Part shown: positions 21,388 to 63,150 of the stretch, piece by piece
How positions within the stretch are numbered: the stretch's first letter is position 1
Layout of the letters: the number at the start of each line of letters is the position of its first letter
Source of the DNA: a virus
Taxonomy: Duplodnaviria > Heunggongvirae > Uroviricota > Caudoviricetes
IMG/VR virus record: IMGVR_UViG_3300035396_000446
Span: 35,006 to 99,005 of that record
Strand: one strand, 5' to 3'
Length of the DNA stretch: 64,000 bases
Made by a program: the position numbers and the translations under genes
The notes under the pieces: model-generated
Seen by the model: only the letters and a program-made list of their open reading frames with translations
Database searches by the model: none
Told to the model about the DNA's origin: nothing

Positions 21388-22587
21388 ATGTTTACTGATA
21401 GAATACTAGATTTAGCCGGTATAAGAAATTCAAATAACTCCCTCAATACTAAGGGACGAAGTTTTAGTGATTTATGGACAATAAAGGAAGATGGCGCAAT
21501 ACAGGGGTCAAGTCTAGATAGAGTCTTAGAACTAGCGGGAGAATCTCTACTAGAGATGATTCAGGTCTCAAAGGCTAACAATGAAAGCGATTACGATATA
21601 ATAGCCTACAAAGATAAGATTTTTACTTACAATAATGAACAAAGAGAGGAAGTCGCGCCACTAATAATAAAGCATCTTGGATTAGAAAATTCAGAAATAC
21701 CTTATAACAACACTCCAATTGAAAACATGGAACAAGTTGAATACTATATTCAAGAAGAAGGCCCAGATGTTTTATATGGACGAGTATCGGACAATACTCT
21801 TTATCTTCACAGTTACGTTTTTAAGCACTCTAAACTTTCTTCTCTACTTAAAAAGGTTGTAAATCAGTTAGATATACTTGAAGTTAGTTATGATTATATT
21901 ACTAATGATGGAGAAGATTCTGAGGTTATAGTAAGACGAAATGAGATTGACGAAGAAATAAAGAATCACGTATTCTACCATGGCACTAGCTCCAAAGCTT
22001 TATATGGTATAGCACAAAAGGGGCTAATGCCAGGTGGAAGTAAAACTAACTTCCCAGGAATAGAGCATGATGAAGATATTTTCATTACAGTAAACAAAGA
22101 TAAGGCTTTTTTTCATGCGGAGACTGCTGCTAGAAATAACCAAGACATTCCTGTTATATTGGAATTAAGAGTTCCTAATCCATCTTTGCTGGGAGATGAT
22201 TATGATGTAGTTGTCAATATACTTAAATCTAACTCTGAGAAAAGCGATAGGTATGAGAATATAAATAGTAAAGTACGGAGACCAAAGACAACAGCGGATG
22301 AGAGTCTAATAAAAAGATTAACAGACACTGGAGAAGATATAAATAAAAAACTTGGTATATTTTCCTATTCTGGCAGAATCCCTGCAACTTATATAGACTC
22401 CTTTTTAATCGATGATGAAGCCTTTTCTTTTTATCACGTATACGAGGAAAAACCTGACAAAATAAAAGATTTAAACTCATGGGATAGGTATGATTTAAAA
22501 GATTTCAATGGTTATCTCGAAGATATAGAGAATAAATACGCACAAGAACAGGAAGATTACGAAGAAGACTATGAGGAAGAGGATTAG
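21388..22587 (+). CDS. ADP-ribosyltransferase-superfamily protein, Tpt1/KptA-like (RNA 2'-phosphotransferase / NAD-dependent)
   Basis: Only long plus-strand ORF (399 aa). VFYHGTSSKALYGIAQKGLMPGG...FFHAETAARNN...IPVILELR parallels E. coli KptA [23 protein letters not shown]...HLSADEATARKVG...SPVILTV. The HGT motif is also shared with diphtheria-toxin-class ARTs. Acidic C-terminal tail. AAGGA RBS 8 nt before the ATG. Confidence 0.55.
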   Translation: MFTDRILDLAGIRNSNNSLNTKGRSFSDLWTIKEDGAIQGSSLDRVLELAGESLLEMIQVSKANNESDYDIIAYKDKIFTYNNEQREEVAPLIIKHLGLENSEIPYNNTPIENMEQVEYYIQEEGPDVLYGRVSDNTLYLHSYVFKHSKLSSLLKKVVNQLDILEVSYDYITNDGEDSEVIVRRNEIDEEIKNHVFYHGTSSKALYGIAQKGLMPGGSKTNFPGIEHDEDIFITVNKDKAFFHAETAARNNQDIPVILELRVPNPSLLGDDYDVVVNILKSNSEKSDRYENINSKVRRPKTTADESLIKRLTDTGEDINKKLGIFSYSGRIPATYIDSFLIDDEAFSFYHVYEEKPDKIKDLNSWDRYDLKDFNGYLEDIENKYAQEQEDYEEDYEEED

Positions 22588-24537: not shown

Positions 24538-25407
24538 TTAAATATCAAATGTTTGTCCGACTTCTAGAAATCCTCGGAATCCGTCATCTTTTGCTTTTGT
24601 TTTCCAATCGCAAGGTTTCCCAAAGAAATCTTTATCATCAAGAACATAATCTTGATAATGACTTAACCACATTTTATTTTTAATTTCTAAAGGTAGCACC
24701 TCGGCATTTGCTTCTGGATACCCCGCTAATTCTGTGTAATTTGCATGTACCCCTGATTTGAAGGGTAGACACTCACAATCTTGAATAATAATATCAGCCT
24801 TAGAGTAAAACACTCTCACTTGTTTCGGGGAACAATGTTGGGAGTCCGTTGTAAAGTAAATAGATTGATGACCTTGCTTACTCACAATAAGGCCAAATGT
24901 ATCACTAATTTTAGATCCTGTCATTATGTGAACCTGTTGGATAAGTTCAAAGTTCCAACCCTGCCATATAAATGACTTATCTACGGGCTTTGGCTCAAAG
25001 TAAGTTTCAATTGTAGCGTCAAATCCCTCCATGGATTCTAAACCACCCCTTAATGTGTTTTTCCAAAGACTTTTAATTAATTCCTTCTGCGCATATAATT
25101 TAGGAGCATAGGGTTTCATCTTACCAATGTTTTCTAGCTGTGTAAAATCATTCCATCTTACAGGTCTATTCATCCAGTCATACCTATCAAAGGCGAAGTT
25201 CTCTAGAGATCCGCAATGATCGTTATGCTGATGTGAGATATATACACTATCTATATCTTTAAAAGATAACCCAGCATTTGTTAATGCCTCGGGGACTAGC
25301 CTCCCACAATCAATTAGCATTCGTTTGCCGTCCTGCTCTAGCACAAAGCTCTGATTAAAATTTCTTTTTGAGAATGCATTACCACATCCAATTATTGTTA
25401 TACGCAT
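24538..25407 (-). CDS. metallo-beta-lactamase-fold hydrolase (RNase Z/PhnP-like)
   Basis: 289 aa with MRITIIGCGNAF, LIDCG and ISHQHNDHCGSL (the HxHxDH zinc motif). Confidence 0.7.
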   Translation of the reverse strand: MRITIIGCGNAFSKRNFNQSFVLEQDGKRMLIDCGRLVPEALTNAGLSFKDIDSVYISHQHNDHCGSLENFAFDRYDWMNRPVRWNDFTQLENIGKMKPYAPKLYAQKELIKSLWKNTLRGGLESMEGFDATIETYFEPKPVDKSFIWQGWNFELIQQVHIMTGSKISDTFGLIVSKQGHQSIYFTTDSQHCSPKQVRVFYSKADIIIQDCECLPFKSGVHANYTELAGYPEANAEVLPLEIKNKMWLSHYQDYVLDDKDFFGKPCDWKTKAKDDGFRGFLEVGQTFDI

Positions 25408-25420
25408 ATTATTTTTCCTT

Positions 25421-26347
25421 TTATTTGATATAAAACCCGTTAGAATCTAACGTATCTATTTTTTGCTTTTGGGTTACAAAAACATCATAGAACTCATCTA
25501 CAATAAGTCTCATTTCTAAACTAAGCTGATTTAGTATTGGAGACTTGATTGCATTAGGTATTCCATAGAAAGCCTCTGCTATGCCCCCTACGATTGCGCA
25601 TAGAGTATCTGTATCCCCGCCTACCATAACTGCGTTTCGTATAGCATCTTCAAAGCTGGTAGAGTTTACAAAGCAATTAAAAGCTAAAGGCACTGTTCCT
25701 TGGCATGTTACATCGAACTTGTATGTTTTACTTATTACTTCTAAATCATCCCCAAGTAGGCTTCCCCTGTAAGGTGTCTCTACCCCTCGATAATGATCTG
25801 TGTATCCATTGATATAACATAAATCTAAAAACTTACACATGGAAGTATTAAAATCTCCCATCTCCGCTATGCTTGTTTGTAAAGCATTGTAAACCATTCC
25901 TGCTGTAGCTTGAGCCCCATATATGCCCTCTGAGTGATTATGGGTTACAGCCGCAGACTTAGCTGCTTCGATATGAATAGTTTCTATCGGGCAACTCAAA
26001 CTATAAGCGTATGCCACAGGAGCGACACGCATGGCTGACCCGTTACCATAACTATTGTAGGGGTTATTATCTTTATTTAACAGCCAAGCATGAAAACTCT
26101 GACCAAACCCAGATTTATACTTTCGTTGTTTATTAGAAAATGTGCTATTCTTAGAATACTTATTACCCCAATACTTATAGCATACCTCGTATGGCATTTT
26201 GTTTAACAGAGCATCCATAGTTGCTACTGTAAGAATTGTGTCGTCCGTAAAGAAACAAGAGTCATTAAACAAAGGAAAATCCTTGCTTCTATGATTCTCA
26301 AACTCGTATCTTGAACCTATGTAATCACCAATAATTGAACCTAACAT
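25421..26347 (-). CDS. ADP-ribosylglycohydrolase (ARH/DraG family)
   Basis: 308 aa with MLGSIIGDYIGSRYEF, FFTDDTIL, GNGSAMRVAPVAY and MVGGDTDT..AIVGGIAEAFYG, all hallmark ARH motifs. Confidence 0.75.
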   Translation of the reverse strand: MLGSIIGDYIGSRYEFENHRSKDFPLFNDSCFFTDDTILTVATMDALLNKMPYEVCYKYWGNKYSKNSTFSNKQRKYKSGFGQSFHAWLLNKDNNPYNSYGNGSAMRVAPVAYAYSLSCPIETIHIEAAKSAAVTHNHSEGIYGAQATAGMVYNALQTSIAEMGDFNTSMCKFLDLCYINGYTDHYRGVETPYRGSLLGDDLEVISKTYKFDVTCQGTVPLAFNCFVNSTSFEDAIRNAVMVGGDTDTLCAIVGGIAEAFYGIPNAIKSPILNQLSLEMRLIVDEFYDVFVTQKQKIDTLDSNGFYIK

Positions 26348-26952
26348 TTTTTATCCTTCTTATTTACTACCCATTTTTGTACGTCCATAAAGAGGATAAT
26401 GGGCGGTTCCCCTCTTCTTTTATGTTTGCTAAAATGATACCAGCCTACGACCATCATCCCTGTTTCAAATTTTCCATCTTCTCTAAGCTCGGAAGAGAAC
26501 ATGGGCATTCTGGATAATATATCCACGGAGCATAGGTAACTGCCATAAATATCTTTTTCAAACCTTTCTTGCCCAGACAAATGAGCAATTGGCATAAGTA
26601 AAAATACATTGTTTGCTATTTTTAGTGAATGTTCAATAATTTTCAAAGTATCTTTATACGGTGGGTTTGACACTATTACATCATATTTTTCTTTAATATC
26701 GAAGAAATTTACGCCAGTATTAAAGGAATTTACGCCGTCAGATATATCAGAGCCTGTTATGTCTAATTTATCATTCTTCTCTTTCAGAGCTTGTACTATG
26801 GCACCCTTACCCGCAAATGGCTCTAAAATTCGATTACCTTTTAGAAAACTACTATACATGCGGTAGAACTCATAGGTTATACCCTTTGGAGTTTGATACA
26901 TGTCATTTGGATTTCTTTGACCTACATTGGCCAAGGAGTATCTTTTACCCAA
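26341..26952 (-). CDS. DNA N6-adenine methyltransferase (phage Dam-like, NPPY class)
   Basis: 203 aa with YQTP near the N-terminus, ILEPFAGKGAI (motif I) and VIVSNPPYKD (motif IV). Confidence 0.7.
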   Translation of the reverse strand: MGKRYSLANVGQRNPNDMYQTPKGITYEFYRMYSSFLKGNRILEPFAGKGAIVQALKEKNDKLDITGSDISDGVNSFNTGVNFFDIKEKYDVIVSNPPYKDTLKIIEHSLKIANNVFLLMPIAHLSGQERFEKDIYGSYLCSVDILSRMPMFSSELREDGKFETGMMVVGWYHFSKHKRRGEPPIILFMDVQKWVVNKKDKKC

Positions 26953-28792: not shown

Positions 28793-30013
28793 TTATAGAA
28801 ACCTACCCATAAACTGATTTTTCGCTTCATCCAAGTTGCTTACTGATGTCAATAGATTGACATCAACAGAGGCACTCTTGTCCACGAACGTAGATCCTTT
28901 CGGGTCGGTTTTGGCCAACTCGGCCATACCTTGGTTTAGAATATTAATAGAGGCGTTATAGTCTCTATCTATTTCTAAACCACATTTTTCACATTTAAAA
29001 GTCCTATCTTTCAAAGTTAGATCAACTTTTTTCCAACCACAACTAGAGCATGTCTTACTGGAAGGGAAGAACCTATCTACTTGATGAATAGTTCTACCAT
29101 ACCAACCTGACTTATATTTTAATTTTGTAACAAAAGAAGACCAAGACACATCATGGATTGCTTTGGCTAGTTTGTGATTTCTCACTATTCCTTTTATATG
29201 TAAATCCTCCAAACAGATAACTTGGCTCTCGTTAGCTATTTTAGAAGATAATTCATTTAAAAAATGGTTTCTCTGATTTGATACATGAAGATGGACTTTT
29301 GCTAACTTTACTCTTTGTTTTTCATAACGATTACTTCCTTTTACTTTTCTACTTAGCCTTCTTTGTAGAGTCTTTGTTTTATTTTCTGAATTTCTTCCAA
29401 AATGGGGATTCTCTATAATAGTTTTATCAGACATTACAGCAAACTCTTTTAGGCCTAGATCTATCCCAATGGATTTTGACTGGACCGGTAAGGTAGGAAT
29501 TTCTACATCACATAAGATTGATGCGAAATAATGACCTACCTTATTTTTGGATATAGTCACGTTACATATTTTTATAGTTTGTAGTATATCAAGGTATGAC
29601 CCCGATGCCTTAAATGAAACAAACCCAAGTTTTAATAATTTTATCTTAGTCTCAAGTACTTTACAGAAAGTTTCTGTCTGTGGTTCTCTATATGAATCTT
29701 TCATCCCCTTCTTCTTAAACTTAGGGAACCCTGATCCCATCTTTTTCATATTTTTGAAAGCTTCTGTTAAATCATTTTGAGCTTGTTGTAGTCCCCTAGA
29801 AGACCCTAAGGCCAACCATTCCAACTCTTTCTTAAAATCTTTTGGATTTAATTGTTTAAAGCCCTCATAACTACCATGCTCTTTTTTCCAAGAAATAACA
29901 TGTTCAAGACATTTATTATACCAAAAACGACAGTTTCCTATTGTCTGATTAATTTGTTGTTCCTGTTTTTTGTTAGGATACAATCTGACTTTAAATGCCT
30001 TCTTTCGTATCAT
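28793..30013 (-). CDS. tnpB: TnpB (OrfB) RuvC-like RNA-guided nuclease, IS200/IS605 family
   Basis: 406 aa. N-terminal KVRLYPNKKQ...CRFWYNKCLE; RuvC-I IGIDLGLKEFAV; RuvC-II VICLEDLHIKG; zinc finger CSSCGW...CEKCG; RuvC-III DRDYNASINI. All catalytic residues present. Confidence 0.8.
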   Translation of the reverse strand: MIRKKAFKVRLYPNKKQEQQINQTIGNCRFWYNKCLEHVISWKKEHGSYEGFKQLNPKDFKKELEWLALGSSRGLQQAQNDLTEAFKNMKKMGSGFPKFKKKGMKDSYREPQTETFCKVLETKIKLLKLGFVSFKASGSYLDILQTIKICNVTISKNKVGHYFASILCDVEIPTLPVQSKSIGIDLGLKEFAVMSDKTIIENPHFGRNSENKTKTLQRRLSRKVKGSNRYEKQRVKLAKVHLHVSNQRNHFLNELSSKIANESQVICLEDLHIKGIVRNHKLAKAIHDVSWSSFVTKLKYKSGWYGRTIHQVDRFFPSSKTCSSCGWKKVDLTLKDRTFKCEKCGLEIDRDYNASINILNQGMAELAKTDPKGSTFVDKSASVDVNLLTSVSNLDEAKNQFMGRFL

Positions 30014-30016
30014 TTC

Positions 30017-30157
30017 TTATTTCTTTTCCTTGGATTTCTTTTCAAGCCATTCTTTTAAAAGTTCTTCAATCAGAACACTAAAGAACTTTCTTTCTTTGGC
30101 CAACTGAGTTTTAGCTTTTATAAATGTTTCGTCGGTTATTGATATATTTGTTTTCAT
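30017..30157 (-). CDS. ribbon-helix-helix (CopG/Arc-like) small protein (46 aa) immediately upstream of tnpB
   Basis: ATG 30157-30155, TAA 30019-30017, stop only 3 nt before the tnpB ATG and in the same frame. MKTNISITDETFIKAKTQLAKERKFFSVLIEELLKEWLEKKSKEKK has a beta strand (ISIT) then two helices, typical of RHH. AGGAG RBS upstream. Confidence 0.4.
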   Translation of the reverse strand: MKTNISITDETFIKAKTQLAKERKFFSVLIEELLKEWLEKKSKEKK

Positions 30158-30216: not shown

Positions 30217-30435
30217 TTATACATATGTCTCTCCTGTTCTAAGAAATAGAATATCTTTAAACTCTTCATTTAGACCGAGTTTAGCTATTAAGTCAGAAAA
30301 CCTAAAAATATAATCACAAGTGCAGCTGCTCATTTTAACATCTTCACCTGTTGTTGGAATGTTTGTAATATTAAGTGGGCAGTTTGAGGAATGTTGTAGA
30401 TTCTCTAGTTGTTCTTTTAATTCTTCTTTTGTCAT
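30217..30435 (-). CDS. hypothetical small protein
   Basis: 72-aa ORF with CxC/CDY Cys pairs. Confidence 0.35.
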   Translation of the reverse strand: MTKEELKEQLENLQHSSNCPLNITNIPTTGEDVKMSSCTCDYIFRFSDLIAKLGLNEEFKDILFLRTGETYV

Positions 30436-30438
30436 TTT

Positions 30439-32049
30439 TTAATACTCTATATCATCAAAAAGTAATGGGATACTTTCTTGAAACTCTTTTAGTAAAGGTC
30501 TCATTAACTCATGCATAATTGGATGTGCTACATCAGCAGTTCGTAAATCCATAATGTGTCGCCACTCTCTAATATTTGTGGTAACAACGATATCTGCTTT
30601 AATTCCAATAGGAAGTACATCCCTTGCAACTTGTGCTTTTACACCCATTCCAATAAGTTTCATGTAATTATTTTGAGAAGATTCCCAAGAGGATAAGAAT
30701 ATATCCTTGGCTTCTTGTCCAAGATTTTCAATATAGTCTGGAATGATTACTGAAATTTCGTTTCCGAACTTTTCTTTTGAATAATTCACGTATCTTGTAC
30801 TGTTATGGGTGATAAATCCTTCAGCAACATAATTGTTTAAAGGAGAGTTCATCTCCAAATCATAAAAAAACTCTTCTACTCCAATCTTTTCTATACTCGT
30901 TATTCTAGATAGTTTGGTATAAGAACATTTTTTCATCTCTTTATGGATCAACTTATGGCATTTGACACATAAAGGTAAAAGATTATACTCCTCATTATTT
31001 TTGGTATCTTTATCCGAGTGATGTCTCTCCTTTGCAGTGGACCCACAATTTAAGCATACAACCTCCTTTAATGAGAAGTTTCTATTAGCTCTACTATACC
31101 CATTCTTTACAGAGTTGCCTAGCCACGCACTATTTTCTTCACCTTTCCCGTTGTTGTGATGGTGGTTTCTTAATGTCTCGGCCTGTTTAGCTACAGATTT
31201 ATTTTCTGACTCTTTTACCCCACGATTCCATACTACCCTCCCATTCTTATATTGATTGTCTATTGTTTCTTTCATTTTTTTATAAGAATCTTCAGTATGA
31301 TTTATGTTGTATTTTCCTGGGTTTTTATCATTTTTCCTAGGAGTAAAAACATTTAATTTTTTAAGGATACGTATAATGCTTCTATATGGAATTTTATGCT
31401 TTTCACTTATTTCCAGAGGGCTCAAGTCTTTGTACTCTTCCACTAGTGAATCCTCGTCTATATTTAAGAGAGATGGTCTTCCGTTGACATTAATATACTC
31501 GCCAACTTTAAGATTTTTTACTGAATCATACTCGTTACTGTTCCTTAATAATTTGTGCTCGCAAGAACAGTCTAAGGAGTACCCTTCTTCCGTGTTAGCC
31601 CTGTATACATCTCCACCTTTCTTTTTGAATACGTGCATAATCTTATTGGCGACTATTAACTGATCATTTGTTACACTTTTTGCTAAGGGAAGGCTTTCCC
31701 CCTTTTCTTGCAGCTCATGTAGTTCTTCAATTGTTATCTTTGTCCCATCTGACATACTTATTTTTGTATTACCTGTGACACATTCCTGGGCAAAAGAAGC
31801 TAAACGCATTCTAACAATTTCATGGCTGAATCCCCGGTTTCCGTGGAATAGAACAGATATTACAGGAGCATGTTCAATCATCGCTTCATGTTTATTTTTA
31901 AGTAAAGTAGCAATCATTTTAAGATCGCTACCCTCTTGAATCAGATCTTCTGATTTATAACAAACCCTAGCAATTCTCTCAATCTGTTTTGTGAACTCTG
32001 TATTCCTGATGTCAGTTAAAATTTCATATGTTGGTTTTATTAATCTCAT
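30439..32049 (-). CDS. thyX: flavin-dependent thymidylate synthase ThyX interrupted by an intein
   Basis: N-extein (aa 1-89) has ARVCYKS and HxxIxxxRxRLASFAQE. The sequence is then broken by C (CVTGNTKI) and resumes after ...ITHN with STRYVNY, restoring the ThyX R(H/M)RxxSxxxxSxRY motif. Exteins total about 209 aa. Confidence 0.8.
   Translation of the reverse strand: MRLIKPTYEILTDIRNTEFTKQIERIARVCYKSEDLIQEGSDLKMIATLLKNKHEAMIEHAPVISVLFHGNRGFSHEIVRMRLASFAQECVTGNTKISMSDGTKITIEELHELQEKGESLPLAKSVTNDQLIVANKIMHVFKKKGGDVYRANTEEGYSLDCSCEHKLLRNSNEYDSVKNLKVGEYINVNGRPSLLNIDEDSLVEEYKDLSPLEISEKHKIPYRSIIRILKKLNVFTPRKNDKNPGKYNINHTEDSYKKMKETIDNQYKNGRVVWNRGVKESENKSVAKQAETLRNHHHNNGKGEENSAWLGNSVKNGYSRANRNFSLKEVVCLNCGSTAKERHHSDKDTKNNEEYNLLPLCVKCHKLIHKEMKKCSYTKLSRITSIEKIGVEEFFYDLEMNSPLNNYVAEGFITHNSTRYVNYSKEKFGNEISVIIPDYIENLGQEAKDIFLSSWESSQNNYMKLIGMGVKAQVARDVLPIGIKADIVVTTNIREWRHIMDLRTADVAHPIMHELMRPLLKEFQESIPLLFDDIEY
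30802..31782 (-). other. intein (327 aa) with embedded HNH homing-endonuclease domain, inserted in the ThyX RHR/SxRY active-site motif
   Basis: Cys+1 at 31782-31780; terminal His-Asn (30807-30802) followed by Ser+1 (30801-30799, checked against the nucleotides). HNH module: CLNCGSTAKERHHSDKDTKNNEEYNLLPLCVKCHKLIH. Confidence 0.75.
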
Positions 32050-33580: not shown

Positions 33581-35233
33581 TTACCTAAACATGGAATAAC
33601 CTTCGGCTCTGCATACTACTGGGTCATAGCATATCCCATTTTTCACACAATTGTAACATTTTTTAATTATCTCGCAACTCTTAATCTGCGCTTTAACTTT
33701 TTCTAAACTTGGCGCAGATGCATTCTGAGATGCTTCCATAGTTCTTCTTGTTGCTTCTGATGCGGGTTTAATTCCTGGGTCTATTTTCCATACTCCATTT
33801 CTAGTATGCCATGCTTTAATGGTTTCTTCTTTTGTTCCAAAAGCATCTGTATTGCAACAACCATAACACAAAGTTTTATCCATGTCCTCATATCTACTTT
33901 TGTTAAAAATATACCAACTTTTTCCATTGATTATATTATCTTCACATTCCAATGTTACTTCTTCACCACAAAATGGACATGGTAGAAGTTCTTCGGTATC
34001 ATCGTATCCACTTGTATCTAATAGTTTGTCTTTTATCTCTTCGTAAGTTTTTAATATATCTTCATCTGTCAATGTATTTTTTTCGGAGGGTTCTTTTATT
34101 TCATTGTATAGTTTGCAATATTCCTCTTTAGACATATGCTTAAATTGCTCTGCCACGTCCTTAAGTACTTTTTCACCATAAGTTTGTTCTTCCGTATCAA
34201 GCAATTCCATGAACTTTTTATTTCTTAGTTCATGTATTTCATTATCACCCGAACTATTATAAAGTTCCATAATCTCTTTAGAATTTGCGGGATGTTCTTT
34301 TACAAAGTCTGATGGTTCTTTTTCAGCATAATCTTTAAGAGGACAATCTTCTGGGAATCTCACATTATCATGATCTCGCCAATATTTATCAACAATTGTT
34401 CCCGTTGCAGCACAGACTGTTTCAATATCTTTTCCGCAGGTTCCGCTAGATGCTCTAAGATTGCAAGTCTCGCAGCTTTCTATTAACATATATTTTAAAG
34501 ACTTTTTTCTACCAATGGTATCTAATGATTCTCTATGGTTCTTAGATACAATCTCATATAGTTCAATATTAGACAGTTTTCTAATAGAGTAATCAGTACC
34601 TTGCCCACTCATCTCTCGATATAATAAACCATTATCAATAAAATATGTTGTCGGAAAATCGTCATCCTCTGACACTATGTTTTTAGCATCATCTCGTTTA
34701 CAATCAAAAAACATGTAAAACTCTTTATTGGACACATTCCCGAACAATGGTTCTTTATAAGGGTTATCTGAGATTATATTTTCAAATTCAAGATGCATCA
34801 GAAGTTGCTTCTCAATATCTTTAAATCTTTCAGATGATTTAAAATCTTCTTTGGCTTTTTCTCGTTTCTCTAAACTATCTATACATTTTTCTATAAAATC
34901 TGGAGAGTCTACAAAAATTTCTTTTAATTTAGCATTCATTTTGTTTGCCCGGTCTCTTGTAAAATGTTCGTCTAATTCTTCTTTAGTTAATGCTATAGTC
35001 TTGTCTATTTTATTAGCATACTCTTTATATTTTGGATTAAGCTCGTTTGGTTCTTTATCTATATATTTAGATTGGGTATCCCTTGCAATTTTTGTAGTCT
35101 GCAAAAAAGTTTCTGATTTTCTAATTTTATCTAAGATACTCATTTTGCTTTCCTCTTTACATTTATCACATCCCCAGATTTCATGATAGGAATGATAATC
35201 AGTTGGCCATTGAATTTGTATTTGACAATTCAT
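33581..35233 (-). CDS. large Zn-finger protein with C-terminal Lar-like (restriction-alleviation family) zinc-ribbon domain
   Basis: 550 aa. C-terminus LPCPFCGEEVTLECED...WY...CYGCCNTDAFGTKEETIKAWHTRNG matches the Lar-family pattern CPFCG...C..C...eeAIxAWNRR. Additional CxxC pairs mid-protein. Confidence 0.45.
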   Translation of the reverse strand: MNCQIQIQWPTDYHSYHEIWGCDKCKEESKMSILDKIRKSETFLQTTKIARDTQSKYIDKEPNELNPKYKEYANKIDKTIALTKEELDEHFTRDRANKMNAKLKEIFVDSPDFIEKCIDSLEKREKAKEDFKSSERFKDIEKQLLMHLEFENIISDNPYKEPLFGNVSNKEFYMFFDCKRDDAKNIVSEDDDFPTTYFIDNGLLYREMSGQGTDYSIRKLSNIELYEIVSKNHRESLDTIGRKKSLKYMLIESCETCNLRASSGTCGKDIETVCAATGTIVDKYWRDHDNVRFPEDCPLKDYAEKEPSDFVKEHPANSKEIMELYNSSGDNEIHELRNKKFMELLDTEEQTYGEKVLKDVAEQFKHMSKEEYCKLYNEIKEPSEKNTLTDEDILKTYEEIKDKLLDTSGYDDTEELLPCPFCGEEVTLECEDNIINGKSWYIFNKSRYEDMDKTLCYGCCNTDAFGTKEETIKAWHTRNGVWKIDPGIKPASEATRRTMEASQNASAPSLEKVKAQIKSCEIIKKCYNCVKNGICYDPVVCRAEGYSMFR

Positions 35234-56065: not shown

Positions 56066-56094
56066 ATTTTACCATGATATATGATTTTTGTCAA
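56066..56094 (-). promoter_or_regulatory. sigma70-type promoter TTGACA-N17-TAAAAT (TGg extended -10)
   Basis: Minus strand: TTGACA (plus 56089-56094), 17-nt spacer ending CATGG, TAAAAT (plus 56066-56071). Overlaps the 3' end of the nucleotidyltransferase gene and marks the end of the five-gene operon. Confidence 0.5.
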
Positions 56095-57026
56095 CCTTCT
56101 TTTATGTATTTTTCAGTTAAATCTATAAGATATTTATTTATTTTATCAAAATCAGATCTTTCTGGAAGCGTAGAGTTTTGCTCAACTTCTTGGAATTTCT
56201 TAAATAAGACATCGCAGATTTCCATTACTTCTTCAAAAGTATATATCCCTGTTTTAGTATTAAGAATAACTTTTCTATGTTCTTCAATCATAGGCAATTG
56301 AATAGTTTTCGTTTCTGCTAGTTCTAGTCCCTGATACAGTAGGCGAAGTAGATGCCCGGCGAACTTGCACTCAAATCCATACTTCCGAATATTATCTGCC
56401 CTAGATCCATAAGCATCTATTTCTTTTTTAAGATGGTCTCTTACTTGCTGCATTGGTTGTTTCACCATATAGGCTCTATTCTCACCTACTTTATTTTTAA
56501 ATGCGCCGTAGTGTAAGCCAGATAAAACTTGAACATCATATTCAGTCAAAGTATCATTTGAAATAGATGTGACATAATCATAGGAATTCTTTAAAGCATT
56601 AAATCTTTCTGTTTTTGTTTTAAGTAACTTTCTTTGCTCATTGCTATAACCAAAGTATGATTTAAACAAATTCTTAGTTATAAACATATCCTTCATACTT
56701 TGAATTTCAAAGTATAGGTCGGAGGTAAACAGCCTTTTCGACTCAGGAACAAAGAATAGTTCAAGAATATTTGGATTTGCTTTCATCGCTAATTCAAAAA
56801 ATCTATGGATAGAATACATAGTTGAGTCAATATCCTCTTTGCTATTTGCTGAGTAATTATCCCCTGTAGATGCTTGATATTCATCTCCCCTTGTAAGACC
56901 AAATAGCTCATTTTTAGATTTCATGAATAAACCGCAGTAATCCGTATCGGACGAAGGGGTATCGGTCCCATAGAGTTTAGAGCCTGAGTAACATATCATT
57001 ATTTTATTTGGTATGTTTTCAAACAT
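56091..57026 (-). CDS. polymerase-beta-superfamily nucleotidyltransferase with cGAS/OAS/CD-NTase (SMODS)-like active-site signature
   Basis: 311 aa. N-terminal ICYSGSKLYGTDTPSSDTDYCGLFM matches GS-x3-GT-x4-SDxD-hydrophobic, as in OAS1 [22 protein letters not shown] and cGAS-like enzymes. A further acidic EDID lies about 40 aa downstream. Helical C-terminal domain. Confidence 0.55.
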   Translation of the reverse strand: MFENIPNKIMICYSGSKLYGTDTPSSDTDYCGLFMKSKNELFGLTRGDEYQASTGDNYSANSKEDIDSTMYSIHRFFELAMKANPNILELFFVPESKRLFTSDLYFEIQSMKDMFITKNLFKSYFGYSNEQRKLLKTKTERFNALKNSYDYVTSISNDTLTEYDVQVLSGLHYGAFKNKVGENRAYMVKQPMQQVRDHLKKEIDAYGSRADNIRKYGFECKFAGHLLRLLYQGLELAETKTIQLPMIEEHRKVILNTKTGIYTFEEVMEICDVLFKKFQEVEQNSTLPERSDFDKINKYLIDLTEKYIKEG

Positions 57027-57036
57027 TATTATATCC

Positions 57037-58668
57037 TTAGCTGCTAATTTTGTATATAGTTTTATCTTTTATTCCCAATACCTGGTCTTCCCTATTGACT
57101 AACTTATATTCAGATAAGCCAGAATTAGGTATAACTTTTACATCATTTTGAGACACTGACTGAGCAAAAATTTCTGCGGAGTCATCCCCATTGACTTTAA
57201 ATACCACGCCCTTTGGTAAGCAAACAAAGTTTATACCACTATAGGATATATCCTTATTTATTCTAACAATTGGGTCTGTATATTCTTTTGAGAACTTAAA
57301 GATATATTCGTCGTACTTGCCTTGATAACTACTAATTATCACAAGTACAGTTTTATCGAACTTAGCATCTACTATTTGACCTTTAATATCTTTTAAAGGT
57401 AACTGCATATGCGTTTTCTTATTAGGAAAAAAAGATAATACAGGAGTTCCTAGTAGATTTTGAATAGCACATCCTGTATAAAATGTGGTTGCATTAGGTA
57501 GTACAGATGCTACAGGGTATAAAACAGGATAGGTTGCTGTTAGGTCAGTAATTTCTACTATTTGCTCCCCTATAAGTACATATACTCTTCCCTCGTAATT
57601 CAGGATGTTCTTTACTGCGCCACTATAAGTCCCTTTGATAGTTTTTAATTTATTGATATAATGTAGCTCTCTATTTTTTAATTCAACATAGAAAAACTCT
57701 TTGCCATTATCTAATATTGAAACTATCCCCTCTAAATCTATAGAATCTACATAGGTTTTAGAGGAAGTATAGACAATCTCCACTGCTCCAATTTTCTTGT
57801 AATTAACAATATCCGAGTCTTTACTAATATATTGATCAATCTTAAAAACACAAACGGTATCAATATGTTTTTGAATAACCACTACCGATCCCACTTGGTC
57901 TATCATGTTTGGGTCTAATCTCTTACCTTGCTCGAAGATAGCATGGAACCAACCTTTATAGTTCTGAGGAATCATATTGAGATCCGCCACAGGGGGCACT
58001 GAAACTTCTGCATTTAATACCGACAAGTTTTTTAGCATCCTGTCATTGATATCTTTTACTGTTGGGTGCTTCCCCTTATAAGGATGTATGCCAGTTAACA
58101 TCTGAAATGCTAATACAGCATAGGAAAACCAATCTGTTTCTTTTGAAAACTGTTTGGCATGTCTATCTCTAATACTATCCATAATAGCCGTAGCAGGGTA
58201 CGTCTTGGTTTGATAAGAATCTACATCAATTGCATATAATTTCTTAAAAGACGAATCTAATAGAAAATTGAGTTCATTCATGTCTACTATAAGGATGTTA
58301 TTAGAGTGACAATTATTCATTATAACCTGTAACTGCTTCATAAGATTTACAATAGTGTCTGCTTTTATTTGATTTCTCACTTTAAAAGCTTTTGTAAATA
58401 TTTGACACAAAGCAGTAGTATCTGTCACATAATTCATAGTATACCCAACTGCTTTCGTACCCTCATAAATGATGTCTTCTGGTTTAATAATACTTGGCTC
58501 TTTTAATACCGCCAACTCTTTAATCTTATCGGTAGGAATCATTTTATTGGGGTCTATATATAGTTTATAGGCTACCCCATCTTTTGCATAGATATGACCT
58601 TCCCCGCCGGAAGCGACAAAGTTATTTTTTGTTAAATCAATGTGTCTGTTTTTAACTGTTACTTGCAT
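57037..58668 (-). CDS. eukaryotic-like Ser/Thr protein kinase with about 290-aa C-terminal extension
   Basis: 543 aa. Gly-loop ASGGEGHIY; VAYKLY (beta3 Lys); catalytic loop HSNNILIVDMNELNFLL (like HRDLKPENILL); AIDVDS in the DFG position; FSYAVLAFQMLTGIHPY in the APE/alpha-F region. Confidence 0.7.
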   Translation of the reverse strand: MQVTVKNRHIDLTKNNFVASGGEGHIYAKDGVAYKLYIDPNKMIPTDKIKELAVLKEPSIIKPEDIIYEGTKAVGYTMNYVTDTTALCQIFTKAFKVRNQIKADTIVNLMKQLQVIMNNCHSNNILIVDMNELNFLLDSSFKKLYAIDVDSYQTKTYPATAIMDSIRDRHAKQFSKETDWFSYAVLAFQMLTGIHPYKGKHPTVKDINDRMLKNLSVLNAEVSVPPVADLNMIPQNYKGWFHAIFEQGKRLDPNMIDQVGSVVVIQKHIDTVCVFKIDQYISKDSDIVNYKKIGAVEIVYTSSKTYVDSIDLEGIVSILDNGKEFFYVELKNRELHYINKLKTIKGTYSGAVKNILNYEGRVYVLIGEQIVEITDLTATYPVLYPVASVLPNATTFYTGCAIQNLLGTPVLSFFPNKKTHMQLPLKDIKGQIVDAKFDKTVLVIISSYQGKYDEYIFKFSKEYTDPIVRINKDISYSGINFVCLPKGVVFKVNGDDSAEIFAQSVSQNDVKVIPNSGLSEYKLVNREDQVLGIKDKTIYKISS

Positions 58669-61698: not shown

Positions 61699-62098
61699 CT
61701 AAATCTCCTGATTTTAATGCGGAAACTTCAGTGCAAGACATACAGTTACCGTCTTTGTCTTTTCTTAGTGGTTGCTCACACTTTGAACACTCTTGGTATG
61801 GGATAACCTCCTTAAAATAAAGGTTATCTTCCCATTCCCCGAAATAATCTTGAGTGTGGTCATACCTTACCTCAACCAAATAGACACCGACAGCTAATTT
61901 GTAATAAAAACCCATCCCATCCATATCCTCTTGTAGCTCATCAAACACATAATCATTATGACATTTATCTATATTGAGTATCTGAAGTAAATGAGCTTCT
62001 AGATTACAGTCTATAGCAATAAGACAAAATGGGTGCTCGGTCCCAGGAATATAATCCTCTTCTTGTTCCCTTACTTCCATTTGCATTAGCTTTAGCAT
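61688..62098 (-). CDS. hypothetical protein, C-terminal Cys cluster
   Basis: 136 aa ending CSKCEQPL...CMSC. Confidence 0.4.
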   Translation of the reverse strand: MLKLMQMEVREQEEDYIPGTEHPFCLIAIDCNLEAHLLQILNIDKCHNDYVFDELQEDMDGMGFYYKLAVGVYLVEVRYDHTQDYFGEWEDNLYFKEVIPYQECSKCEQPLRKDKDGNCMSCTEVSALKSGDLDGN

Positions 62099-63150
62099 TC
62101 TTCTTGTCCATTATCTGTATCAACTACACCTGCTTCCTTATCAAGATATTCATGAAACCATCTTCTAGCTTCTTTAGAGATATGCCCGTTGACGCTTTTA
62201 GGCTCAAGATTATTCTTAATAAGCGTATCCATTTCTTCTTTCATAACATCATTTACAACCCATCTCAAGAAGTCGCCTGTTTTCTCCACTACAGGAGGTT
62301 CATTTGCAAATACAATAGAAATACCCTGCATAAGTCTATTCTCTGTTACAGCATATTCAACAAACTCTTTTATACCTTCCATTTTCTCTACATCAACAGC
62401 GGATAAAGTCGTAACACGGGAACTACTATGCTTCTCTCCCTTCGTTTTGAAAATTATACGGTTATCACCTAAATATGTCTCCCATACAATTCCTTCTCCA
62501 ACACCCTCTACCCCAAAAGCTTTTCCAACGGGGCATTGAGTTTCTACTTCTTCTACATACTCAATCATTTTCTTTTGAGCAATATGTGGGTTCTCAAAGT
62601 CGATGTCTATTTCATATGTTTTAAAAGAAAGAATATTGTAGATGTTATGCTCTTTAAGGTCATTAAAATAAGACGCATCAAACTCTTTAAGCCACTTCCC
62701 TTCCGTCTCGTTCTCTACAACATTTGATAATTTTACACCAAATACTACAAACATCTTATTAGGAAGTTGGGAAAGGGCTACTCCTTTTTGAATGCTTTGA
62801 CCACACCATTCACCATAGATAGAGATAATATCTGCGTCTGTTTTTATAGTAGAAAACATATGTTTAAATACTTCTTTCTTGCTCTCTACAAAGAAAGCAA
62901 AACCGGCGTTATCTTTTTCAATAGTAATAATATTTTCTCTTGACTGCGCCCACATGTCGCCTGTTTTTGTATTAAAACACACCCCTGAATTCGTACCATG
63001 GAGTTTGACTGTTCCTCTAAACTTAATAATAGGCAACTTTATAGTTCTATCATACCCTTTCTCTTTATCTACGAATTGAACCCTATCAGATACGGCTCGA
63101 ATTGTTTGTCTAAATTGTTGTGTCTCTGGGTAACTAATTAATTTTTTCAT
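62092..63150 (-). CDS. RNA ligase, Rnl2 family (T4 gp24.1-like)
   Basis: 352 aa. Motif I TVKLHGTNSGVCF matches T4 Rnl2 REKIHGTNFSLI. IYGEWCGQSIQKGV matches FGEFAGPGIQKNV. EGIVWETY is motif IV-like. IIFKTKGEKH is motif V (K-x-K). Confidence 0.7.
   Translation of the reverse strand: MKKLISYPETQQFRQTIRAVSDRVQFVDKEKGYDRTIKLPIIKFRGTVKLHGTNSGVCFNTKTGDMWAQSRENIITIEKDNAGFAFFVESKKEVFKHMFSTIKTDADIISIYGEWCGQSIQKGVALSQLPNKMFVVFGVKLSNVVENETEGKWLKEFDASYFNDLKEHNIYNILSFKTYEIDIDFENPHIAQKKMIEYVEEVETQCPVGKAFGVEGVGEGIVWETYLGDNRIIFKTKGEKHSSSRVTTLSAVDVEKMEGIKEFVEYAVTENRLMQGISIVFANEPPVVEKTGDFLRWVVNDVMKEEMDTLIKNNLEPKSVNGHISKEARRWFHEYLDKEAGVVDTDNGQEEC

Follow-up and report, generated by a model that had tools for sequence, protein, structure and literature searches.

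A thyX gene of an uncultured phage split within its active-site motif by an intein with a predicted in-frame HNH homing endonuclease

How a phage comes to carry a thymidylate synthase gene whose active-site motif is cut in two by 327 additional codons is the question raised by a minus-strand locus in the window analysed here, a stretch of 64,000 nucleotides (positions 35,006 to 99,005 of the IMG/VR virus record IMGVR_UViG_3300035396_000446). The open reading frame (ORF) concerned encodes ThyX, and the answer that we regard as very probable is that a class-1 intein encoding an HNH homing endonuclease in frame has inserted itself into the thyX gene of this uncultured phage. The evidence set out below establishes which domains are present, where precisely the junctions lie, that no catalytic residue is missing and what folds are predicted; it also establishes a large family of inteins at the same site, some of them mini-inteins without the endonuclease.

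The identity of the interrupted enzyme is best seen from the behaviour of protein family profiles before and after removal of the insert. In the intact precursor of 536 residues, the Pfam family Thy1 (PF02511; curated cut-off, 24.8 bits) is matched over two separate stretches, and Intein_splicing (PF14890) is matched at residues 98-416 with an E-value of 6.9e-16. Removal of residues 90-416 in silico leaves a spliced ThyX of 209 residues, and the joined exteins then give a single, near-full-length Thy1 match (profile positions 8-190 of 191; 1.7e-38, 132.7 bits), while TIGR02170 (thyX), an NCBIfam equivalog, goes from 83.6 bits, under its curated cut-off of 87.9 bits, to 103.6 bits, over it. Residues 11-208 of the spliced sequence align to the solved ThyX structures of C. 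glutamicum, M. tuberculosis and T. maritima (3ge9 at 1.3e-14), and the E-values from these comparisons for ThyX identity lie far beyond chance. His 54, Glu 59, Arg 92, Arg 149 and Arg 176 (spliced numbering), the substrate and cofactor residues of HxxxxEH, SxRY, ARxxLP and the C terminus, which are 91-99% conserved in the 123 relatives nearest to the window protein (the short-form sample), are all kept, in agreement with the structure alignment; as for the extein columns with at least 85% conservation, 34 out of 36 are kept, the departures being the His of the RHR motif, which is Met, and one Glu-to-Gln change. The gene is preceded by an AAGGA ribosome-binding site about 9 nucleotides 5' of the ATG.

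The junctions can be placed to the nucleotide, as FAQE/C...HN/STRY (slashes mark the splice points). At the N-terminal junction the sequence reads ...IVRMRLASFAQE/CVTGNTKI... (with a longer extein stretch, SHEIVRMRLASFAQE / CVTGNTKI) and at the C-terminal junction AEGFITHN/STRYVNY... (longer C-extein stretch, STRYVNYSKEKF), from which the intein-less thyX site is reconstructed as TTAGCTTCTTTTGCCCAGGAA/AGTACAAGATACGTGAATTAT. Excision makes the motif R-x-R-x-x-S-x-x-x-E-S-x-R-Y whole again. The +1 nucleophile, Ser 417 of the precursor, is the serine in the classical ThyX motif RHR(X)7S, and it matches Ser 105 of the M. tuberculosis enzyme according to the structure alignment and the residue numbers of PMC6514825. 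The initial annotation had described a ThyX split by a 327-residue intein, with precise junctions inside the RHR(X)7S/SxRY motif, and the profile and junction analyses bear it out on each of these points. Judged by its sequence, the ORF should be annotated as a ThyX precursor with an intein, in preference to 'HNH endonuclease' or 'hypothetical protein'.

The intein carries the complete set of residues associated with protein splicing. Blocks A, B, F and G were sought and all are identified (Table 1): Cys 90 of the precursor is intein Cys 1, the nucleophilic Cys of block A, and block B reads S73-C-E-H76. In an alignment of 66 full-length inteins, all at the insertion site of the window intein, Cys 1, His 76, Asp 308, His 326 and Asn 327 are invariant, and the window copy keeps every one of them. 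TIGR01443 scores 16.0 bits on the precursor (curated cut-off, 15.6 bits). An AlphaFold2 model built from the family alignment (mean predicted local distance difference test score, pLDDT, 85.8) shows a Hint fold of two lobes, residues 1-105 and 288-327, each modelled with a pLDDT above 90.

Between the Hint lobes lies the endonuclease. Since the Pfam HNH models give nothing significant on the window copy alone, its assignment draws on residue conservation, PHROGs, Pfam matches at the family level, a profile search and the predicted fold. The signature C243-x-x-C246...H254-H255...N263...N267...C272-x-x-C275-H276...H280 is 91-100% conserved in the family, with the zinc-site pairs C243-x-x-C246 and C272-x-x-C275 at 98-100%, and is complete in the window copy. 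PHROGs HNH families match the window intein at 3.2e-6 and 1.4e-5, and among 64 aligned relatives Pfam recognises HNH_3 in 24, HNH in 20 and NUMOD3 in one. A profile of the family HNH segment, compared with known structures, finds the HNH domain of IscB at 1.6e-5, with weaker matches to a Cap5-type HNH, a group II intron maturase and I-HmuI; a phmmer search of the intein against the PDB gives weak matches only. The model places a beta-beta-alpha unit, the core of an HNH fold, at intein residues 252-282. No LAGLIDADG family is found by Pfam on the window precursor at E-values up to 1, and PF14528 is present in other ThyX proteins of the list (e.g. P0073 and P0089). Supported at the family level by these sequence comparisons, the HNH assignment is sound, as is the earlier view that the endonuclease is not of the LAGLIDADG type. 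A local search of the six-frame translation of the window with hidden Markov models (HMMs) detects no further Hint, HNH or DNA-binding module of this intein's family.

Table 1. Positions of the thyX precursor, its intein and a neighbouring gene cluster in the window.
Feature	Position	Strand	Details
thyX precursor ORF	30439..32049	-	536 codons + stop
N-extein, aa 1-89	31783..32049	-	HxxxxEH segment and R-M-R (RHR-equivalent) motif; ends ...FAQE
R80-M81-R82, RHR-motif position	31804..31812	-	His -> Met
Intein, 327 aa, precursor aa 90-416	30802..31782	-	Cys1 to His326-Asn327
Hint N-terminal lobe, intein aa 1-105	31468..31782	-	block A C1; block B S73-x-x-H76; TIGR01445 3.3e-12
Endonuclease DNA-binding region, intein aa 106-234	31081..31467	-	three-helix helix-turn-helix (HTH) 110-142; NUMOD3-like helices 164-179, 195-207; low-confidence linker
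HNH nuclease module, intein aa 235-290	30913..31080	-	C243, C246, H254, H255, N263, N267, C272, C275, H276, H280
Hint C-terminal lobe, intein aa 291-327	30802..30912	-	block F D308; block G H326-N327
C-extein, aa 417-536	30442..30801	-	first residue S417 in S-T-R-Y; ARxxLP Arg and WRHxxxLR Arg
Apyc1-like (anti-Pycsar) metallo-beta-lactamase-fold protein	24538-25407	-	
ADP-ribosylglycohydrolase	25421-26347	-	
Short ORF with Eco57I-type methylase match	26341-26952	-	

The window intein belongs to a large family. A search of 5.8 billion metagenomic proteins returned 1386 homologues, and among the best 120, from which the junctions were classified, about 100 are ThyX proteins with an intein, inserted at three adjacent sites of the ThyX motif: site a (RHRxxS[YF]/C...HN/SQES.RY; at least 7 examples, two of them from GenBank phages), site b (...QE/C...HN/STRY; at least 76 examples, the window included) and site c (...ESTRY/C...HN/CNY; at least 19 examples). 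At site b, the endonuclease is present in 66 inteins of 290-334 residues, and 9 others, of 148-216 residues, are mini-inteins, a mixture that is the pattern expected from a cycle of homing, fixation and decay. Viral contigs of 17-429 kb in IMG/VR contribute 12 ThyX inteins at site b and no fewer than 7 at site a or a0, and a Methanomassiliicoccales virus in GenBank has an HNH intein at site a. A scan of species-representative cellular genomes retrieved 49 ThyX-flanked inteins, 46 of them with a homologous HNH, so that at least 46 cellular species have such an intein; the carriers include Streptomyces, Planctomycetota, Polyangia, Chloroflexota, Omnitrophota, Natroniella and Methanomassiliicoccaceae, and a single one of those retrieved, from a metagenome-assembled genome of Desulfobulbaceae, occupies site b. 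The initial annotation had called an HNH endonuclease uncommon in a ThyX intein, a statement that does not hold for the relatives found, in which HNH prevails (the 66 at site b, Gizmo gp97, the cellular set and IMG/VR); the relatives from metagenomes, phages, cellular genomes and IMG/VR were all picked by similarity to the window intein, and these samples give abundance and not the true share of HNH among all ThyX inteins.

From these features we infer that splicing, DNA cleavage and synthesis of deoxythymidine monophosphate (dTMP) do take place, by the following route. The precursor made by translation would weigh about 62 kDa. Its ThyX motif is interrupted after the R-x-R that binds flavin adenine dinucleotide (FAD) and before the S-x-R-Y that binds deoxyuridine monophosphate (dUMP), and because the intein parts these two elements the precursor is expected to be inactive. 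An N-S acyl shift at Cys 1 would produce a thioester, which Ser +1 would attack in a trans-esterification; Asn 327 would then cyclise with the assistance of His 326, releasing the intein, and an O-N shift would join Glu 89 to Ser 417. The product would be a ThyX of 209 residues (about 24 kDa), presumably supplying dTMP for phage DNA synthesis. Once free, the intein (about 38 kDa) would use its HTH and NUMOD3-like arm to bind intein-less thyX alleles of co-infecting related phages, the zinc-bound HNH module would nick or cut those alleles, and recombinational repair would copy the intein into them, a gene conversion during co-infection that amounts to homing.

Several observations weigh against this interpretation. 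Block B has Ser at position 73, where 92% of relatives carry Thr (a conservative change), and intein position 292 is Ser where 94% carry Asp; neither is a known catalytic residue. The sole match of the window copy in the Pfam search for HNH models is DUF968, at 0.3. The His of the RHR motif, an FAD hydrogen-bonding residue (PMC6514825), is Met in the window protein. Finally, megablast of positions 20-44 kb of the window against GenBank phages gives no match and hence no closely related intein-less allele that would document homing.

The alternative that fares best, and one that we consider unlikely, is a protein that splices and in which the HNH domain no longer homes, being inactive or a structural or DNA-binding passenger, so that the intein is fixed and vertically inherited. 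The failure of the Pfam HNH models on this copy and the low model confidence of the linker at residues 224-233 and of the segment at 282-286 would fit such a loss, but all ten of the family-conserved HNH and zinc residues are present and the HTH and NUMOD3-like region is conserved as well (168.6 bits to the family HMM). Nor is a dispensable endonuclease simply carried along in this family: it has been lost outright in the mini-inteins. In favour of a fixed intein, its base composition, which is near that of the host gene, suggests long residence; overall G+C content and that at third codon positions (0.336 in the intein, 0.248 in the exteins) differ too little, over too few codons, to argue for recent acquisition.

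Decay of the whole element, leaving a non-splicing insertion and a thyX that is in effect a pseudogene, is very unlikely. It would account for T73S and D292S, both at strongly conserved family positions, for the lost ThyX His, and for the observation that the window copy is the most divergent of its clade, with at most 45% identity to any other member. A decaying gene would not, however, be expected to present a reading frame unbroken over 536 codons, the splicing residues Cys 1, His 76, Asp 308, His 326, Asn 327 and Ser +1, the metal and zinc ligands of the HNH module, nearly all of the conserved extein columns and a Hint model confident in both lobes. The window element is a clean, well-preserved and otherwise ordinary example of its class, and is probably functional.

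Just as improbable is that the extein is a diverged ThyX-like flavoenzyme and not a dTMP synthase, with different cofactor binding or another pyrimidine substrate and a product feeding DNA modification. ThyX-like enzymes with other substrates do exist, such as PolB in polyoxin biosynthesis, and the His replaced here by Met stands among the FAD-binding residues and is 97% conserved in the short-form subfamily, in which Met accounts for 2%. Against this, the equivalog cut-off of TIGR02170 is passed, and the protein retains both Arg residues and the Ser of the motif, together with the Arg residues of SxRY, ARxxLP and the C terminus. The RHR residues hydrogen-bond to the phosphates and the ribityl moiety of FAD (reviewed in PMC6514825), and in the window motif, R-M-R-(X)7-S, both Arg residues, the spacing and the Ser are kept. 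The R-M-R at residues 80-82 to which the initial annotation drew attention is real, but its suggestion of an atypical ThyX is unproven: among 256 ThyX relatives with an alignable motif, 219 have RHR, 30 RMR, one RNR and one RQR, and the recurrence of RMR in several subfamilies suggests that the change is tolerated. The simplest reading, and probably the correct one, is that this is a canonical ThyX in other respects and that the substitution is tolerated; nothing besides R-M-R, the only mildly unusual feature of this locus, speaks for a changed function. A modified-pyrimidine pathway, also proposed earlier, finds no support in the thyX neighbourhood, where Pfam recognises no nucleotide-modification gene among ten neighbouring ORFs and the small flanking ORFs have no recognisable function. 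Likewise very unlikely is that the His-to-Met change marks a diverged flavoenzyme with altered cofactor handling or a substrate or product other than that of dUMP methylation, gated by splicing at its active-site serine and not devoted to plain dTMP supply.

The RMR proteins are mostly long-form ThyX of about 330-370 residues, and two others besides the window protein bear inteins, P0067 at site b and P0096 at site c. In the long-form RMR proteins (P0103-P0120, P0134, P0152 and others) the N-extein is matched in two stretches, which suggests from the alignments an insertion after about residue 63; these proteins may be a separate subfamily of phage ThyX, one that systematically has Met in place of the motif His. 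One further entry, P0121, with 19 'ThyX-like' stretches, was discarded as a spurious translation of a tandem repeat.

In a neighbour-joining tree, the only tree calculated, the ThyX inteins do not group strictly according to where they are inserted. P0049, from site c, shares 57% identity with site-b inteins but no more than 41% with the rest of the site-c set, and nests in a site-b clade, and the site-b inteins P0067 and P0084 cluster with site-a inteins. This pattern suggests that related HNH inteins have shifted by 3-4 codons inside the ThyX motif. At the IMG/VR loci L112-L146, inteins with a C-terminal HNH and blocks F and G like those of the window intein lie in Walker-A-like motifs (.../SGKT...) of other viral proteins, so the HNH-intein lineage is not confined to ThyX. 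Introns, too, target the ThyX motif region: in the crAss-like phage Kolpuevirus sp. 'frurule' (OQ198718.1, 723-1108 of locus L004), the ThyX gene is split just 5' of the RHR motif (GVSH / EFVRHR) by a group I intron (RF00028, 74.1 bits) that contains a small ORF. In many crAss-like records the ThyX match is in two pieces.

The window derives from an uncultured phage of about 191 kb (a metagenomic contig of 190,870 bp; ENA ERZ27248460), identified as such by a portal protein, a T4-type large terminase, an RNA ligase and a nucleotidyltransferase; the large terminase has at most 33% identity to that of any GenBank phage. An SNF2 helicase, an ADP-ribosylglycohydrolase and an Apyc1-like protein are also encoded, the latter two in a cluster of likely counter-defence and modification genes (24538-26952, minus strand; Table 1). 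About 0.4 kb downstream of thyX and in the same orientation lies a second mobile-element gene, encoding a TnpB of 406 residues (28793-30013, minus strand) with HTH_OrfB_IS605, OrfB_IS605 and Cas12f1-like TNB domains; small ORFs at 30017-30157 and 30217-30435 separate the two, and at the TnpB locus neither a TnpA nor a match to an Rfam RNA family is recognised. Rfam at its gathering thresholds and tRNA scans return nothing from the whole window. Elsewhere, a protein-kinase-domain protein (57037-58668, minus strand) adjoins the nucleotidyltransferase (56091-57026, minus strand), with the RNA ligase at 62092-63150 (minus strand), and the three may form an RNA-repair or signalling module. An ORF encoding 399 residues, without a Pfam match (21388-22587, plus strand) is the only large plus-strand ORF amid an array of minus-strand genes.

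The value of the result is mainly for annotation, in that thymidylate synthesis can be counted among the phage's own functions. The ThyX motif, 14 residues long, emerges as a crowded landing pad for mobile elements: related HNH inteins occupy no fewer than three neighbouring codon positions in it, and in crAss-like phages a group I intron lies just upstream of it. The apparent shifts between sites could be a useful natural system for the retargeting of HNH homing endonucleases. Both the clustering and the apparent site switching are properties of the family and not novelties of the window locus.

The closest known counterparts share the insertion point itself. An uncultured huge phage of 462 kb (LR756500.1; 3001-4719 of locus L001) and about 65 metagenomic homologues have the same junctions, ..FAQE/C...HN/STRY, and the same layout of Hint domain, HTH, NUMOD3-like helices and HNH, with some 43-45% identity over the whole precursor; the same-site intein of LR756500.1 is at 44% identity, and its GenBank record is unannotated, so that this intein is in the databases but undescribed. 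This group has the canonical R-H-R, in contrast to the R-M-R of the window protein, a feature shared with the site-b protein P0067. ThyX inteins have reportedly been in the literature since 2004, when Liu and Yang are said to have described the Ter ThyX intein of Trichodesmium erythraeum. That element, like the one in the window, is an intein in a ThyX gene, whereas its host is cellular (a cyanobacterium) and not a phage; it was not retrieved in the scan of species-representative genomes. Its splicing efficiency in E. coli is about 100% (PMC3620165).

Mycobacteriophages of cluster C1 provide a second point of reference. Gizmo gp97, annotated as 'ThyX-like, putative intein', is, like the window protein, a phage ThyX with a class-1 intein and an in-frame HNH inside the ThyX motif, and the C-terminal 64 residues of its intein are 36% identical to those of the window; the ThyX inteins of these phages were listed by Kelley et al. 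2016 (PMC5050341). The Gizmo insertion, however, lies a few residues upstream (RHRSGF/C...HN/SYNEESGRY), at a distance of 3-4 codons from the window site, and its intein is shorter (257 residues), is without the HTH and NUMOD3-like region and has the HNH variant D-H...N...CxxCH. HNH inteins in general, which resemble the window intein in having an in-frame HNH in place of LAGLIDADG within the Hint domain, have been known since Dalgaard et al. 1997, to judge from the citations of that work in PMC5050341 and 10.1101/2025.01.02.630785. A survey of actinobacteriophages reports them mainly from phages and includes thymidylate synthase in its list of proteins that host inteins with non-canonical endonucleases, in-frame HNH among these (10.1101/2025.01.02.630785); this survey is confined to actinobacteriophages and does not describe the site-b lineage with its HTH and NUMOD3-like arm. 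Inteins in ThyX, inteins with HNH and the two combined are thus already known and abundant in databases, and by sequence comparison the window intein is a divergent new member of a large known class of ThyX inteins.
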